The translations under genes were made by a program, and so were the position numbers. Shown here piece by piece: positions 11,193-49,287 of a stretch of 64,000 nt of DNA. The stretch comes from an uncultured Actinomycetes bacterium (GTDB lineage: Bacteria; Actinomycetota; UBA4738; HRBIN12). Below the pieces are notes generated by a model. The model saw only the letters and a list, made by a program, of their open reading frames with translations, did no database searches and had not been told where the DNA came from. Each line of letters opens with the position of its first letter. Positions within the stretch are counted from its first letter, which is position 1. The stretch lies in NCBI GenBank assembly GCA_963716935.1, contig CAVQUN010000005.1, forward strand, positions 384,864 through 448,863, in the 5' to 3' direction.

Positions 11193-12359
11193 ATGGCGCA
11201 GACGATCTCCCCGCCGAGGCCATCGCTCGAGGACCCCGAGCCGAGGCCGATGACGCCCGCACGCGGGCGGCGAACGGTCCGCGCGAAGGACGCGTTCGTG
11301 ACGCTCGTCGTCGCTCTCGTCCTGTGGGCGCTGCTGTTCGCGCCCGTGCTCGAGAAGGGGGCGGAGGGCGGGCCGGTGGGGACCCGCCGAACGGTGGCGC
11401 TCGCCCTGCTCCGGCCGCTCACGACCGTGTCCGACGCGCTCGGCGTCGATCGGGCGTCCGGCGTCGTGCTCCGCGTGCTCGGACGCGACCTCGACGCCCC
11501 GGCCGGCGGCGAGCTCGACCTCCCGCAGATCGACCTGCCGCCGCTTCCGCCGATCGTCGAGCCGGCCGATCCGTCGCCGCCACCACCCGAGCACACCAGC
11601 CCGTCCCCCGCCACACCGCAAGCGGCCGAACAGGAGCCGCCGCCCGACGGCGGGGGCTCGCCGGCTGCCGCCGCCGACCCGAAGATCCGCCTTCCCACCG
11701 GCGACGCAAAGCTGCGGGTCGCCGTCGTCGGCGACTCGCTGTCGCAGGGACTCGGGCCGGCGATCGCGCAGCTGTTCGATCCCGACGTGAGCCGGGTGTT
11801 GCCGCTCGGCCGCCAGTCGACGGGCCTCGCGAGGCAGGACTACTTCAACTGGCAGTCCGCCATGCGCCAGCTCGAGGAGGAGTTCCGGCCCGACCTCGTG
11901 TTCGTCCAGCTCGGCTCGAACGACAACCAGTCGCAGATCACCCCGAGCGGCGGCCAGGTGGAGGTCGGCAGCATCGCGTGGGTGAACGCCTATCGCGAGC
12001 GCGTCGACGCCTTCCTGCGCGAGGCGACCTCGAACGGAACCCACGTCGTCTGGGTCGGGATCCCGGTCGTCGCCGAGCACCAGCGATGGGAGTTCTACCG
12101 GCGGGTCAACGCGATCTATCGAGAGGCGGCCGCCGCCAACCCGCTCGCCACCTATGTGGACGCGTGGAACCTGTTCGAGAACCGCGAGGGCGGCTACACG
12201 GCCTACCTGCGCAACGAGCGGGGCGTCTTGCAGGAGATGCGCGCACCCGACGGGATCCACATGACGCCCACCGGCTACGACTACCTCGCGCGCGATGCCA
12301 TCCGGGCGGCGGCGACGGCGTTCGCCCTGCCGCAGCGGGCCGTCTCGTTCCCGATCTGA
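11193..12359 (+). CDS. SGNH/GDSL hydrolase-family protein with N-terminal membrane anchor and Pro-rich linker (AlgJ/PatB/DltD-like partner)
   Basis: ATG 3 nt after the MBOAT stop. TM anchor, then a PPLPP...PPPP linker, then the GDSL block AVVGDSLSQG and an SGNH core. Confidence 0.8.
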   Translation: MAQTISPPRPSLEDPEPRPMTPARGRRTVRAKDAFVTLVVALVLWALLFAPVLEKGAEGGPVGTRRTVALALLRPLTTVSDALGVDRASGVVLRVLGRDLDAPAGGELDLPQIDLPPLPPIVEPADPSPPPPEHTSPSPATPQAAEQEPPPDGGGSPAAAADPKIRLPTGDAKLRVAVVGDSLSQGLGPAIAQLFDPDVSRVLPLGRQSTGLARQDYFNWQSAMRQLEEEFRPDLVFVQLGSNDNQSQITPSGGQVEVGSIAWVNAYRERVDAFLREATSNGTHVVWVGIPVVAEHQRWEFYRRVNAIYREAAAANPLATYVDAWNLFENREGGYTAYLRNERGVLQEMRAPDGIHMTPTGYDYLARDAIRAAATAFALPQRAVSFPI

Positions 12360-12434
12360 GCCGGCTCCTCGCCCGCACCTGTCGAACCCGTTCGTCGCCG
12401 TTCGTCGGTAGGGTGACGGAGGGTGGACGACGGT

Positions 12435-12452
12435 CGATCGGAGCTCCGATCG
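12435..12452. promoter_or_regulatory. Perfect 18-bp palindrome CGATCGGAGCTCCGATCG upstream of the yciI-like/sigma operon
   Basis: Perfect inverted repeat immediately 5' of the RBS GGGAGGAGG of the YciI-like gene. Preceded by a tandem direct repeat CCGTTCGTCG x2 (12389-12408). Confidence 0.3.
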
Positions 12453-12464
12453 GGAGGAGGCGGC

Positions 12465-12827
12465 ATGCGATACCTGCTGTTGATCTACGGGGACGAGAAG
12501 GAATGGGACGGCATGGGGCTCTCGCCCGAGGACCAGGCGGTCGAGATGAAGCGGTGGAACGACTACACCGACTGGCTCCAACAGAAGGGCTGGCACCTCG
12601 GGGGCGAGGCGCTCGAGCCGACGTCCTCGGCCACGACGGTGCGCGGGAGCGAGGGCACGACGCTCACCACGGACGGGCCCTTCGCCGAGACGAAGGAGCA
12701 GCTCGGCGGCTACTACCTGATCAATTGCGCGAACCTGGACGAGGCCATCGAGGCGGCGTCGCAGATCCCCAGCGTCGGGCGGGGGTCCATCGAGATCCGG
12801 CCGATCATGGAGTTCGGGCAGGAGTAG
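12465..12827 (+). CDS. YciI-like / DGPF-domain protein
   Basis: YCII-related fold with the DGPF motif (TTDGPFAETKEQLGGYYLI). ATG 12465 lies behind a strong RBS. Confidence 0.8.
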   Translation: MRYLLLIYGDEKEWDGMGLSPEDQAVEMKRWNDYTDWLQQKGWHLGGEALEPTSSATTVRGSEGTTLTTDGPFAETKEQLGGYYLINCANLDEAIEAASQIPSVGRGSIEIRPIMEFGQE

Positions 12828-12903
12828 CGGGATCGATCCGCGTGCGGTCGTCGACGACCTGTTTCGCACGGAGCACGGACGGGTCGTCGCCACCCTGATC
12901 CGC

Positions 12904-14064
12904 GTGCTCGGCGACTTCGACCTCGCCGAGGACGCGGTGCAGGAGGCGTTCGCCGAGGCGGTGCGGACCTGGCCCGAGCGCGGGGTCCCGCGCAACCCGG
13001 GAGCGTGGATCACGACGACCGCGCGGAATCGGGCGATCGACCGGCTCCGGCGCGAGCGGGTCCTGCGCGAGAAGACCGAAACGCTGACCCGGCTCGCCGA
13101 GCTCGAGTCCCTGGGCGGAGACGAGACCGACGTGAGTGGGATCCCCGACGACCGGCTGCGGCTGATCTTCACGTGCTGTCACCCGGCGCTGCCGATGGAC
13201 GCTCGCGTCGCGCTCACGCTGCGAACCCTCGGCGGCCTCACCACGGGGGAGATCGCCAGGGCGTTCCTGGTCGCCGAGGCCGCGATGGCACAGCGGCTGG
13301 TGCGGGCGAAGCGGAAGATCGTCGCCGCCGCGATCCCGTACCGGGTCCCCCCGCCCGAGCTGTTGCCCGAGCGACTGCCGGGCGTGCTCGCGGTGCTCTA
13401 CCTCGTCTTCAACGAGGGCTACGCGGCGACCTCGGGCCCGCTCGTGCGCACCGATCTGTGCAACGAAGCGATCCGGCTGACCCGGGTGCTGGTGGCCCTC
13501 ATGCCGAACGAGGCCGAGGCCGAGGGACTGATGGCGCTGATGCTCCTGCAGCACTCGCGCCGCGATGCGCGGGCCGACGAGCGGGGAGCCCTCGTGCTGC
13601 TCGAGGACCAGGACCGGGCGCGGTGGGACCACGACATGATCGACGAGGGGATCACCGCCCTCGACGCCGCCATGGCCGCTCGGCGGCCCGGCCCGTATCA
13701 GATCCAGGCGGCGATCGCCGCACTGCACGCGCAGGCACCGCGACCCGAGGACACGGACTGGCCGCAGATCGCGGCCCTGTACGGGCGGCTGGCCGAGCTC
13801 TCGCCCTCGCCCGTCGTGGAGCTGAACCGCGCGGTGGCGGTCGCGATGGCCGACGGGCCCGCGCGGGGCCTCTCGATGGTGAACGCCCTCGCGGGCGACC
13901 TCGACGGCTACCACCTGTTCCACTCGGCGCGGGCCGATCTCCTTCGCCGGCTCGAACGACGGGACGAGGCCGCCGAGTCCTACCGTCGAGCGCTGGCGCT
14001 CGCAACGAATCCGAGCGAGCGGGCGTACCTCGAGCTGCGGCTCGCGGAGGTCACGGCGACCTGA
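12904..14064 (+). CDS. ECF-type RNA polymerase sigma-70 factor with C-terminal extension (SigJ-like/DUF6596 type)
   Basis: Sigma regions 2 and 4 (DAVQEAF...WITTTARNRAIDRLRR) and a long C-terminal domain. First canonical start is GTG 12904, but conserved region 2.1 is encoded in-frame upstream from about 12829 (see findings). Confidence 0.75.
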   Translation: MLGDFDLAEDAVQEAFAEAVRTWPERGVPRNPGAWITTTARNRAIDRLRRERVLREKTETLTRLAELESLGGDETDVSGIPDDRLRLIFTCCHPALPMDARVALTLRTLGGLTTGEIARAFLVAEAAMAQRLVRAKRKIVAAAIPYRVPPPELLPERLPGVLAVLYLVFNEGYAATSGPLVRTDLCNEAIRLTRVLVALMPNEAEAEGLMALMLLQHSRRDARADERGALVLLEDQDRARWDHDMIDEGITALDAAMAARRPGPYQIQAAIAALHAQAPRPEDTDWPQIAALYGRLAELSPSPVVELNRAVAVAMADGPARGLSMVNALAGDLDGYHLFHSARADLLRRLERRDEAAESYRRALALATNPSERAYLELRLAEVTAT

Positions 14065-14497
14065 CCAGATACATCAACACGGCGCCGACGGGGATCGGCC
14101 CGTCGTCGCCGTCCAGGTTGGTGCTCGTCAGGTACGGCCCTTGCGCAGGGCGATATCCCAGGCGCTCGTACAGGGCTCGCGCCGGCGCGGCCGCCTCGTC
14201 GAGCGAGACGGACAGGCCGACGGCGATCTGGCCGGCCGCGAGCGCGGCTGCCTCGAGCGCGCCCATGATCGCGCGCGCGGCCCCCTGCCGGCGTCGCGAG
14301 GGCTCGACGAAGACGTCGCGCACCTCCGCGCAGCGCTCGCGGGCCGCCGAGATCGAGTACTCCTCGTGGATGGGGAACAGCACCATCCCTCGCCCGACGG
14401 GCTCGCGTCCGTCCCACGCGATCACCTGAACGAGCTCGCCGCGACGCTGGGCGGCGAGCCGGCGTTCGTACTCGGTCGAGCTCCAGACGGGCAGCAC
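14051..14497 (-). CDS. GNAT-family N-acetyltransferase
   Basis: GNAT motif A (RRRQGAARAIMGALE) and fold. Convergent with the sigma factor, with a 14-nt tail overlap. Confidence 0.75.
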   Translation of the reverse strand: MLPVWSSTEYERRLAAQRRGELVQVIAWDGREPVGRGMVLFPIHEEYSISAARERCAEVRDVFVEPSRRRQGAARAIMGALEAAALAAGQIAVGLSVSLDEAAAPARALYERLGYRPAQGPYLTSTNLDGDDGPIPVGAVLMYLVRSP

Positions 14498-14546
14498 TCG
14501 GTGCAGGGCCCCGAGGTCGGCCTCCCCGAGCCGGCGGACCTCGAGC

Positions 14547-15926
14547 TCAGCCGATCGGCACCTCCGGCAGCCGGGCGAGCGCCGCCTCCTCCGCCGCCGG
14601 GTCGAACTCGACCTCGGGCAACCGGCCGTTCAGGTAGTCGTCGTACGCCTGCATGTCGAAGTGACCGTGACCCGAGAGCCCGATCAGGATCACCCGCTCC
14701 TGCCCGGCTACGCGCGCCGCGCGCGCCTCGTTCACGGCGCCGCGGATCGCGTGCGCCGACTCCGGCGCCGGCACGATCCCCTGGGCCTTGGCGAACAGCA
14801 CGGCCGCCTCGAACACCTCGTTCTGCGTGTACGCGGCCGCCTCCATGTGTCCGTGCTTGACGAGCAGCGACAGCGACGGGGAGTCCCCGTGGTAGCGAAG
14901 CCCGCCCGCGTGGACCGGCGCGGGGACGAAGTCGTGCCCGAGCGTGTACATGGGAAGCAGCGGGGTGAGCTGCGCCGTGTCGCCGAAGTCGTAGGCGAAT
15001 CGGCCCTTCGTGAGCGTCGGGCACGCCGCGGGCTCGGTCGCGAGGAACCGCATGTCGGGCGTCTCGCCGCGCAGCCGCCCCGCCATGAACGGATACGCGA
15101 GCCCGCCGTAGTTGGAACCGCCGCCGACGCACCCGATCACGACGTCGGGCACCTCGCCGGCCATCGCCATCTGCTCCTTGGCCTCGAGCCCGACGACGCT
15201 CTGGTGCAGCAGCACGTGGTTCAGGCAGGACCCGATCGAGTAGTTCGTGTCCTCGTTCGTCGCCGCGACCTCGATCGCCTCGCTGATGGCGATGCCGAGC
15301 GAGCCCGTCGAGTCCGGGTTCGCCTCCAGGATCGACTTCCCGGCCTGGGTCGTGGACGTCGGCGAGGACCGCACCTCGGCGCCGAAGGTCTCGATGAAGA
15401 TGCGCCGGTACGGCTTCTGTTCGTACGACGCTCGCACCATGAAGACCAGGCACTCGAGGCCGAAGAAGCTGCACGCCATCGACAGCGATGACCCCCATTG
15501 CCCGGCGCCGGTCTCCGTCGACAGGCGGCGCGCACCCGCCTCGCGGTTGTAGTACGCCTGCGCCACCGCGGTGTTCGGCTTGTGCGACCCCGCGGGCGAG
15601 ACGCCCTCGTACTTGAAGTAGATCCGCGCCGGCGTGTCGAGCGCGCGCTCGAGCCGCGTGGCGCGAAACAGCGGCGACGGCCGCCAGAGCTGATAGACGT
15701 CGAGGACCTCGCCGGGGATGTCGATCCACTCGTCGGTCGAGACCTCTTGCAGGATCAGCGCCTCGGGGAACAGGGGGGCGAAGAGGTCCGGGGTCACCGG
15801 CTCCTTCGTCCCCGGATGCAGTGGCGGCAGGGGAGGGATCCCCGCCTGCGCCATCACGGGCAACAGGTTCTGCCAAGCCGTCGGGATGCGATCGGAGGGA
15901 AGGTCGAAGCGCGTGCGCTCGGTCAC
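14547..15926 (-). CDS. trpB2: TrpB-like PLP-dependent enzyme (tryptophan synthase beta, TrpB2 family)
   Basis: About 459 aa, with the PLP-lysine region ([11 protein letters not shown]) and the TrpB2-type N-terminal extension. Confidence 0.85.
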
Positions 15927-26240: not shown

Positions 26241-26985
26241 TCACGTGTGCCTCCTCCCCGGACCCCGCCGGAACACCGAGAACTCGAACGCGTCCGCCAG
26301 GTGGTGCTCGTGCGAGGAGACGAGCGGAGCGCCCGACTCGTCGAAGTCCACCTGACGCAGATACAGGAGCAACGTCCCGCGGGCGACGCGGAGACGGGAT
26401 GCGACGTGTCCGTCCGCCCGCGTCGGCCGGAACGTCGCGAGCCCGTGATGGATCACCTGGCCGAGATCGCGCTCGAGCACCTCGTACACGGAGCTCGTCT
26501 CGAGCTTGGTGAGCAGCGCCGGGTCGTCGCCCGTGACGCGCATGGCCAGGATGTCGCGCGACAGGACGACGGGTCGCCCGTCGGCCGTGCGAACCCGGTC
26601 GACGACGACCACGTCCTCGCCCGGCTCGAGGTCCAGACGCTCGGCCTCCTCGGCGGAGGCGGCCTCGACGCGTAGGACCCCCTGCTCGGTTCCCGGTTCC
26701 ATGCCCGACGCGCGGATCGCGTCGGTCACGCCGAAGTTCGCGTCGAGGTTGTTCGCCATGCGCGGGCGGTCCGACACGAAGGTCCCCGCCCCGCGCGTCC
26801 GCCGGACGAGCCCCTCCTCCTCCAGGGACCGAAGCGCCTCGCGAAGCGTCGCCCTCGAGACGCCGAGCTCGGCCGCGAGCTCGGGCTCGGGGGGAGCTGG
26901 CTCCCCGCCGGCTCGTCGAGGATCCGCGTGGCGATGTGGCGCCGCACCGAGAGCGTCTTGGAACCCGACCGTCGCACCCGCACCC
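26241..26985 (-). pseudogene. GntR/HutC-family regulator (wHTH + UTRA) interrupted by a frameshift at a C6 homopolymer
   Basis: The HTH half (VRRSGSKTLSVRRHIATRILDEPAGSQLPP | EPELAAELGVSRATLREALRSLEEEGLVRRTRGAGTF) switches frame at the G6/C6 run 26888-26893. The UTRA effector domain continues in the other frame to the stop at 26241. One extra C would restore a single ORF. Confidence 0.6.
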
Positions 26986-27004
26986 CTCCCGAGCCATCAG
27001 TATT

Positions 27005-48305: not shown

Positions 48306-49287
48306 GCATCCTGTCGGTCCGTGACCTCGCGATCACCTATTCCACGCAGGGCGGGCCCGTGCCCGCCGTTCGCGGCGTGACCTTCGACATCGAGAAGGGC
48401 GAGGTGCTGGGCCTCGCCGGCGAGTCCGGGTGCGGCAAGTCGACGATCGTGAACGCCATCCTGCGCCTGCTGCCACCCGAGACGAAGGTCGAGGGTGAGG
48501 TGGTGCTGGGCGGCGAGGACGTGCTGTCGATGAAGCCGGGACGCCTGCGCGCCGTGCGATGGACCGAGGCGTCGGTCGTGTTCCAGGGCGCGATGCATGC
48601 GCTGAATCCCGTGCAGCGGGTCGGCGATCAGATCGCCGAGGCGATCGTGATCCACGGGCAGGCCGGCGAGCGCGAGGCGTTGGTGCGGGTCGGCGGTCTG
48701 CTCGAGCAGGTCGGCCTGCCGCCGCGACGGCTTCGCGACTACCCGCACGAGCTCTCGGGCGGCCAGAAGCAGCGCGTGATGATCGCGATGGCCCTCGCGT
48801 GCAGCCCGAGTCTCGTGATCGCCGACGAGCCCACGACCGCCCTCGACGTGATGGTCCAGGCGCAGGTGCTGAAGCTCCTCAAGAGCCTCCAGCGCGAGCT
48901 CGGCCTCGCGATGCTGTTCATCACGCACGACCTGTCCGTGCTCGTCGAGGTCTCGGACCGGCTCGCGATCATGTACGCCGGGAAGATCATCGAGGAGGGG
49001 ACCGCGCGCGAGGTCTTCGACAGCCCGAAGCACCCGTACTCGGAGGCGCTCGCGGCGGCATTCCCGGCGATCGGCGACGAGCGGTTCCGCCGCAACCCAT
49101 CGGGGCTGGGCGGCGATCCTCCCGACCCGGCGGCGATCCCCTCCGGCTGCTCGTTCCATCCGCGGTGCCCGGTCGCGTTCGAGCCCTGCTCGACGACGGT
49201 GCCGGAGCTCTACGCCGCGGGGGAGGGGCGTCGCGCCGCGTGCCTGCTCGTCGAAGGCGCGCTCGTCGACGCTCCGAGGACGGCCGA

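Follow-up and report, generated by a model that had tools for sequence, protein, structure and literature searches.

An ECF42-type sigma factor gene without a canonical start codon directly behind yciI, with AUC as its candidate start

Sigma factors of the extracytoplasmic function (ECF) group ECF42 have a C-terminal extension with TPR repeats and a conserved YCII neighbour, and they are without an anti-sigma factor (PMC8999054). No paper was found in which missing start codons are linked to ECF42 or to ECF sigma factors, beyond a general remark (PMC7826278). Initiation at near-cognate codons has been measured in Escherichia coli, where AUC, AUA, AUU and CUG initiate at ∼1–2% of AUG and where an AUC construct carries an N-terminal methionine, as determined by mass spectrometry (bioRxiv 10.1101/063800). 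The subject of this work is an ECF42-type sigma factor gene found directly downstream of a yciI/DGPF-like gene in a 64,000 nt stretch of DNA from an uncultured Actinomycetes bacterium (contig CAVQUN010000005.1). The whole stretch is termed the window, and all positions refer to it. The locus is designated WIN; related loci carry the letter L and database proteins the letter P.

The sigma factor gene has lost every canonical start codon (ATG, GTG or TTG) ahead of its conserved coding sequence. Comparison of the loci shows that this start-less state is real and heritable and that it recurs among relatives, where it comprises about a quarter of yciI-ECF42 pairs. What is new here is the recurrent, stable loss of canonical starts in yciI-coupled ECF42 genes, together with the systematic mis-annotation that results from it. 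In WIN, a separate sigma factor is probably translated at low output from AUC 12832, behind an AGGAG sequence, and its initiation is probably coupled to termination of yciI.

An open frame ahead of the first canonical start

The reading frames were recomputed, and two observations of the initial annotation are confirmed. The sigma frame is closed upstream by an in-frame TGA at 12718–12720 and has no ATG, GTG or TTG before GTG 12904, and yciI, as read from the open reading frames (ORFs), terminates at TAG 12825–12827 with the sigma frame in the +1 register relative to it. The sigma frame (1 mod 3) is thus open from 12721 to the TGA at 14062–14064, with zero canonical starts within 12721–12903. 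The G + C content is ∼71% across 12300–14300, and a codon-position scan of G + C, based on the third position (GC3), places the onset of the sigma-frame coding signal at ∼12826, which is at the yciI stop. Codons 12829–12903 translate as GIDPRAVVDDLFRTEHGRVVATLIR. The proposal that a region 2.1 peptide is encoded ahead of GTG 12904 holds, with Pfam similarity beginning at Leu 12859; the coordinates first assigned to it do not, as the 28-residue peptide IDPR...VLGD spans 12832–12915.

The junction between the two genes recurs in other assemblies. The sequence GAGGAGTA(G/A)CGGGATCGATCC, in the +1 relation, is identical in L162 (JGI) and in L175 (ENA, a k141 contig), which stem from other samples. 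Database proteins P0002–P0004 are 92–94% identical to the WIN sigma factor and are found on four contigs from two JGI samples. At the level of gene calls, these contigs display a 120-amino-acid YCII gene, a 76 nt gap and a 386-amino-acid sigma call, all as in WIN; a 120-amino-acid YCII gene is found at the matching position in relatives as well. A 1 nt assembly error, which was among the possibilities first considered, is rejected by the recurrence of the junction in L162 and L175 and of the same gap on the four further contigs; in addition, a long homopolymer is absent at the junction. Elsewhere in the window, a GntR gene is likely frameshifted by a homopolymer, the G6 run at 26889–26894, and indel errors are therefore plausible in the WIN assembly. 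Nevertheless, the probability that an assembly or sequencing indel created the WIN junction is close to negligible.

Substitution patterns point to translation of the upstream segment. Over the 24 codons from ATC 12832 to 12903, comparisons between WIN, L162, L175 and L161 give synonymous differences (pS) of 0.34–0.65 and nonsynonymous differences (pN) of 0.04–0.16. The pN/pS ratio of ∼0.1–0.3 for 12832–12903 resembles that of the following 100 codons. This purifying selection in the sigma frame indicates that the segment upstream of GTG 12904 is translated in that frame.

These data also bear on the annotated start. The 386-amino-acid gene model begins at GTG 12904, which is the earliest canonical start and the one chosen by gene callers in both WIN and P0002–P0004; under this model the upstream similarity would be a remnant, or the gene would be decaying. 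However, L175 reads GTC CTG where WIN has GTG CTC, and its earliest canonical start is 11 codons further downstream, yet L175 keeps the entire upstream peptide. GTG 12904 is not a conserved start because L175 is without GTG there. The initial annotation had regarded orthologues starting at the equivalent of GTG 12904 as evidence against its proposal, and the opposite is found. Locus L002 has no canonical start in the 106 open codons upstream of the anchor residue (the Asp of the GDF motif), and its earliest canonical start lies 16 codons downstream. A product begun at GTG 12904 would be without the first sigma-2 helix, as judged from alignment to the SigK structure 4nqw and from Pfam profile position 1, and no ribosome-binding-site-like core is found ahead of 12904. 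As purifying selection extends upstream of 12904 and the 410-amino-acid frame is intact across the clade, with 50–100% identity, the annotated start is highly improbable.

The sigma factor itself is, by its domains and gene neighbourhood, an ordinary ECF42 member. The Sigma70_r2 match (Pfam, 12859–13059, 8e-15) starts with the first position of the profile at Leu 12859, which is 15 codons 5′ of GTG 12904, and the alignment to SigK of Mycobacterium tuberculosis (4nqw) also begins at this residue. Matches to Sigma70_r4_2 (13165–13320, 2e-9) and DUF6596 (13372–13674, residues 182–282, 2e-38) follow, and a TPR match at 13918–14007 (TPR_2/TPR_7, residues 364–398) is below gathering scores. The NCBIfam model TIGR02937 (sigma70-ECF) is matched with 51.5 bits, relative to a cutoff of 42.9, and homologues number in the thousands in database searches. 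Sigma-2 and sigma-4 are the only sigma domains, as is typical of ECF architecture. The C-terminal extension of ∼200 amino acids with TPR repeats that characterizes ECF42 is represented by DUF6596 and the sub-threshold TPR match. The other ECF42 characteristic, a neighbouring YCII/DGPF gene, is found directly upstream, and such a gene is adjacent in 109 of the 164 classifiable related loci. Both the family of the sigma factor and its association with YciI/DGPF genes had thus been correctly recognized at the outset.

A motif, TGTCGAA-N16-TTCGTCGGTAGGGTG, upstream of yciI is common to WIN, L161, L162, L174 and L081. Its conserved form is TGTCGAA-N16-TCGTCG. The shorter TGTCGA precedes yciI in 50 of 88 related loci, compared with ∼0.1 expected per 230 nt. 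The motif appears to resemble the ECF42 target promoter and is a candidate for it. The yciI-sigma operon is probably transcribed from a promoter that its own sigma factor recognizes, and would then be autoregulated. Coordinates of all features are in Table 1.

Table 1. Features of the yciI-sigma locus and of other genes in the window
Feature	Coordinates	Strand	Remarks
Putative ECF42-type autoregulated promoter, TGTCGAA-N16-TTCGTCGGTAGGGTG	12380..12415	+	Upstream of yciI; motif conserved in relatives
Shine-Dalgarno sequence of yciI, GGGAGGAG	12452..12459	+	Read directly; 5 nt before ATG 12465
yciI/DGPF-like gene, 120 amino acids	12465..12827	+	ATG 12465, TAG 12825–12827 (frame 0 mod 3); Pfam YCII PF03795, E = 6e-20
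AGGAG, Shine-Dalgarno-like core in the terminal yciI codons (Gln-Glu)	12820..12824	+	7 nt 5′ of ATC 12832
ATC, near-cognate codon proposed as the sigma factor start	12832..12834	+	4 nt past the yciI stop
Proposed coding sequence of the ECF42-type sigma factor, 410 amino acids	12832..14064	+	Stop TGA 14062–14064; Pfam and NCBIfam matches
CTG (Leu of the LFR motif), alternative near-cognate start	12859..12861	+	Equivalent codon is the annotated NCBI start in L173
GTG, earliest in-frame canonical start	12904..12906	+	Start of the 386-amino-acid database gene call (P0001)
GNAT acetyltransferase, second start-less gene	14051–14549	−	Stop at 14051; earliest canonical start GTG 14497 (148 amino acids)
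PALP gene	14547–15926	−	Precedes the acetyltransferase
GntR/UTRA regulator	26241–26996	−	Helix-turn-helix domain upstream of the earliest canonical start

Start-less loci among relatives

The related loci consist of 160 from metagenome and GTDB scans and 16 obtained by exact look-up. Canonical starts were sought 19–60 codons upstream of the anchor, and loci were considered adjacent where yciI ends within 200 nt. Start-less ECF42 genes comprise 25 of 109 yciI-adjacent loci and 2 of 55 non-adjacent ones (Fisher p = 1.4e-3). One of the latter, L096, is yciI-adjacent when inspected by eye, with a CTGA overlap, and the corrected counts are 26/110 vs 1/54 (p = 2e-4). In 21 of the 25 start-less loci the upstream open frame is entirely free of canonical starts. 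The start-less loci belong to Actinomycetota, Chloroflexota, Solirubrobacterales, Acidimicrobiia and one alphaproteobacterial metagenome-assembled genome, so the losses are multiple and independent.

Many of the 120 closest clusters (77–100% identity) are called short, with starts at VLGDF, (M/L)IRVLGDF, VATLIRV or VQEAF. The shortening among these 120 homologues amounts to 25–52 residues. Two database proteins, P0005 (L176) and P0016 (L173, 1501–1503), are printed with methionine, yet the DNA start codon is CTG. The annotated start of L173 is the Leu of the LFR motif (P0016 is printed 'MFRQ...'), whereby the conserved VVDR residues would be dropped.

Other arrangements are seen around the junction. 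Some close relatives have two tandem YCII genes ahead of the sigma gene (L163, 674–1432; L176, 726–1490). In L134, at ∼2412–2573, a long, low-complexity (ASERP)n repeat extends the N-terminus; it follows an ATGA overlap and lies between the yciI stop and region 2.1. Streptomyces cavernae (L158, ∼2309–2570) displays a Gly/Ala/Ser-rich repeat in a different frame, with no canonical start in 87 open codons.

Initiation behind the yciI stop

Up to and including the conserved D-P-R codons, which vary synonymously among relatives (GAT/GAC, CCG/CCA, CGT/CGC/CGA), the ATC at 12832 is the only in-frame ATH, CTG or ACG. It is present at the equivalent position in WIN, L162, L175 and L161, and AGGAG 12820–12824 is kept as GAGGAG in L162, L175 and L161. 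ATC is therefore at the 5′ edge of conserved coding with a canonical alternative absent, as expected of a near-cognate start, and its distance from the AGGAG core falls within the 5–10 nt of a Shine-Dalgarno sequence. Relatives with canonical starts begin 3–10 residues before VVDRLF; a start at ATC 12832 therefore gives an N-terminus of normal length. Among the options first raised, a non-canonical start (ATC, ATT or CTG) is the one supported, both by the geometry at ATC 12832 and by the enrichment of cores across the family.

This enrichment is seen with GGAG/GAGG cores ending 0–12 nt before the yciI stop, which are found in 17 of 25 start-less loci vs 17 of 84 canonical ones (p = 1.6e-5). 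A ribosome-binding-site-like core 4–11 nt before the start is present in only 6 of 72 canonical yciI-adjacent loci. Of the 20 start-less loci that have a core, 15 carry a near-cognate codon (ATC, ATA, CTG or ACG) in the sigma frame 5–10 nt behind it, compared with 3.5 expected from a background of 6.3% per codon (p ∼2e-8). When close duplicates are removed, the count is 12/17 vs 2.8 expected (p ∼1e-6), and with the background doubled p is 5e-4.

Near-cognate CTG codons also show positional homology. The CTG of L049 and L124, part of a CTGA, is at the position of the GTG start (GTGA) of L012, with ATC GAG next in each, and the CTGs of L163 and L176 align mutually despite differing stop positions. 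The NCBI annotation uses CTG starts in L173 and L176. In ten start-less loci, CTGA takes the place of the NTGA stop/start overlap. The CTGA overlap was rejected as stand-alone evidence because it is circular: in offset-2 TGA loci without ATG, GTG or TTG the fourth base must be C. It was used only jointly with positional homology (L012 vs L049) and with core spacing. The CTG at 12859 was likewise rejected as the only start of WIN. It is disfavoured because the upstream VVD(D/R) and DPR codons are conserved with synonymous variation and because no core precedes it.

The position of the sigma gene relative to yciI is consistent with translational coupling. A 4 nt NTGA stop/start overlap is found in 29 of the 72 canonical yciI-adjacent loci, and coupling is therefore the norm in the family. 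In WIN, TAG and ATC are separated by 4 nt, which is the proximity expected of coupled genes. A promoter-like or terminator-like site was looked for in the yciI-sigma intergenic junction and none was found, so that both genes are presumably carried on one transcript.

The following mechanism is proposed. The yciI gene and the ECF42-type sigma gene would form a two-gene operon, with no canonical start left in the sigma gene. A ribosome that ends yciI at UAG 12825–12827, or a fresh 30S subunit, would pair with the AGGAG of the last yciI codons. AUC 12832, 7 nt downstream of AGGAG and 4 nt past the stop, would thereby be set in the P site. Initiation with formyl-methionine at AUC 12832 would take place at low efficiency and yield a separate sigma protein. 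A sigma factor without an anti-sigma factor would thus be made only in a small amount that depends on yciI. Within this scheme, AUC is the likely codon in use, and sigma initiation probably depends on yciI termination. Low dosage of the sigma factor may be the purpose of the arrangement: a weak, yciI-coupled start would limit the positive feedback of a sigma factor without an anti-sigma factor.

Several findings weigh against AUC initiation. At 71% G + C, Ile is encoded by preference as ATC, so that conservation of this codon alone says little, and AGGAG is also constrained by the coding of yciI (Gln/Glu-Glu). The enrichment tests are without full correction for shared ancestry. Every start-less locus stems from a metagenomic assembly, and the ∼9 cultured relatives (Streptomyces, Nocardia, Actinomadura, Dactylosporangium and others) all have canonical starts, mostly in ATGA/GTGA overlaps. 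Five loci with GTAG/GTAA overlaps (L174, L002, L015, L081 and L173) show no classical near-cognate codon upstream of the conserved residues. Lastly, a second start-less gene of the window, the GNAT acetyltransferase, has in WIN, L162 and L163 neither a canonical nor a near-cognate codon before a conserved Val-Arg.

The last two of these findings lead to a different possibility, that re-initiation after yciI termination is independent of the start codon or very relaxed, and takes place at whichever codon is positioned by the core. A separate sigma protein would still be made, and AUC 12832 would then be incidental. Nearly all start-less sigma genes are directly behind a yciI stop, as such re-initiation would have it, and in the GTAG/GTAA group the core is 5–10 nt before GTC or GTA with no classical near-cognate present. 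The base before the TAG/TAA stop in the 16 offset-2 loci is always G (12) or A (4) and never C, where C is expected about half the time at the third codon position ahead of a stop; this suggests that the RTA overlapping the stop is not random. In WIN, L162 and L163, the neighbouring acetyltransferase begins right after the PALP stop without a near-cognate codon. Most of the 57 other codons give 0.1–1% of AUG in E. coli (bioRxiv 10.1101/063800), which also counts in favour of relaxed re-initiation. Against it is the presence of a near-cognate codon at the core-set position in 15 of 20 loci, which would be unneeded if codon identity were irrelevant, and the coupling reviews (PMC12548453, PMC10666635) offer no precedent for it as a conserved wild-type mode of expression. 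Codon-independent re-initiation is on balance an unlikely account of WIN, and initiation at AUC is the reading preferred here.

The conserved N-terminus of the acetyltransferase reaches the TGA of the PALP gene, in the +1 frame. L161 has an ATG at the place where WIN, L162, L163 and L174 have AGG; in L174 the sole candidate is a CTG that directly precedes the conserved Val-Arg. Gene calls in relatives range from 111 to 170 amino acids. As this gene has no near-cognate codon, some other mechanism may operate in the lineage. A broader hypothesis, tentative and on the unlikely side, is that in soil lineages (uncultured Actinomycetota, Chloroflexota and others) genes behind the stop of a partner gene may be expressed by termination-coupled re-initiation that tolerates almost any codon (AUC, CUG, ACG, AUA, even GUC/GUA) and needs only a nearby ribosome-binding site. 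If so, canonical starts would have been lost repeatedly and stably, a low ratio of sigma factor to YciI would be fixed for ECF42, and many such genes would be systematically mis-annotated as N-terminally truncated.

A fusion of the two products was also considered. By a programmed +1 frameshift at GAG-UAG-C, a YciI-sigma fusion of ∼530 amino acids (∼58 kDa) would be formed that reads ...MEFGQE-SGIDPRAVVDD..., with the expected junction peptide ...MEFGQESGIDPR. The sigma frame is open across the yciI stop, AGGAG is just upstream of the stop, and C follows the stop in WIN, L162 and L175. A stop codon followed by C is a weak termination context. However, the shift from GAG to AGU allows no tRNA re-pairing, so that a slippery P-site codon is missing. 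AGGAG abuts the stop with 0 nt spacing, unlike prfB, where the Shine-Dalgarno sequence is 3 nt from the shift site. The 101 nt segment 12805–12905 folds no better than shuffled sequences (z = 0.03), and no Rfam family is matched at the yciI-sigma junction; neither the spacing of AGGAG nor an RNA structure thus provides a stimulatory element.

Comparison of loci also argues against the frameshift. The frames of start-less sigma genes are offset from yciI by −1 (14 loci), +1 (8) or 0 (3), and no shift site is conserved. None of the codons that precede the stop is slippery (GAG, GAC, AAC, GGC, GCC, UCG and others), and they have no motif common to the groups; in other +1-offset relatives GAC, AAC, GGC or GCC precedes the yciI stop. 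In locus L125 a further in-frame stop separates the two genes. Locus L161, which is syntenic over seven genes and 2 nt shorter after TAG, makes a separate protein, its sigma start being a GTG 13 nt before the yciI stop (MGRGVGIDPR...). With a 221-amino-acid query consisting of YciI and the sigma N-terminus, ∼50 proteins with YCII and Sigma70_r2 were found (among P0121–P0240). All are 170–390 amino acids long, come from ENA assemblies, have off-frame Arg-rich stretches and are C-terminally truncated. By their length, off-frame segments and truncated ends, these database YCII-sigma "fusions", which might be taken for natural ones, are read as assembly indel artefacts, and no clean fusion of ∼530 amino acids was found in the search with the hypothetical fusion. 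The programmed frameshift, put forward as an option along with the non-canonical start, is not supported and is very unlikely, and a separate sigma factor initiated at AUC remains the preferred reading.

When 49 ORFs of the window were scanned for GC3 onset, 8 were flagged. The sigma factor and the acetyltransferase are real start-less genes among them, a third is the frameshifted GntR gene, and three are false positives (PALP, MBOAT and aminotransferase). Further flagged ORFs are 48739–49209 (−), which is without a Pfam match, and 26241–26996 (−), which is the GntR frame. The GntR regulator has its N-terminal part (GTG...KTLSVRRHIATRILDEPAGSQLPP) in a different frame, and the two frames meet at a run of C6 on the coding strand (G6, 26889–26894). 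The frame break is likely a homopolymer indel in the assembly, or a real frameshift or pseudogene.

Significance and comparison with known systems

Gene models truncated so as to omit the first sigma-2 helix would be misleading for structure prediction, for ECF classification and for expression work. For ECF42 sigma factors, which are without an anti-sigma factor, a very weak, yciI-dependent start would provide simple dosage control. The conserved YCII gene next to the sigma gene would also have a concrete role in cis. Within one family there are dozens of natural, independent replacements, whereby ATGA/GTGA is changed to CTGA, GTAG or ATAG, or to a ribosome-binding site with AUC/ACG. The start-less ECF42 loci represent a comparative set for the strictness of start codon choice during coupled re-initiation.

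The WIN sigma factor shares with the ECF42 group, which includes Sven_0747 of Streptomyces venezuelae and ECF-10 of Pseudomonas putida, the sigma-2 and sigma-4 domains and the TPR extension of ∼200 residues. It also shares the adjacent YCII/DGPF gene, and an anti-sigma gene is not seen among the ORFs immediately around the WIN locus. The gene differs from the group as described in having no canonical start codon.

The release factor gene prfB (RF2) has in common with WIN a stop followed by C, an upstream element resembling a ribosome-binding site and a downstream +1 frame. Unlike prfB, WIN has no slippery codon of the CUU-U type, and its element is wrongly spaced. Among relatives, conservation of the site is lacking and the offset of the frame varies. 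Closer is termination-reinitiation coupling (PMC12548453, PMC10666635), with which WIN shares a short-gap junction (4 nt) and its relatives share ATGA, GTGA and TTGA overlaps. In the cases described there, the downstream start is ATG, GTG or TTG, unlike the CTG, or the GTA/ATA across TAG/TAA, found here.

With genes that have near-cognate starts, such as infC and pcnB of E. coli (both AUU), WIN shares normal spacing of a ribosome-binding site before an AUH codon, and a low efficiency is expected in both. Compared with infC and pcnB, the state seen in WIN recurs in many lineages of one family and goes together with an upstream gene to which the sigma gene is tightly coupled. In start-less ECF42 genes the codon also varies by lineage, being ATC, CTG, ACG, ATA or possibly GTC/GTA.

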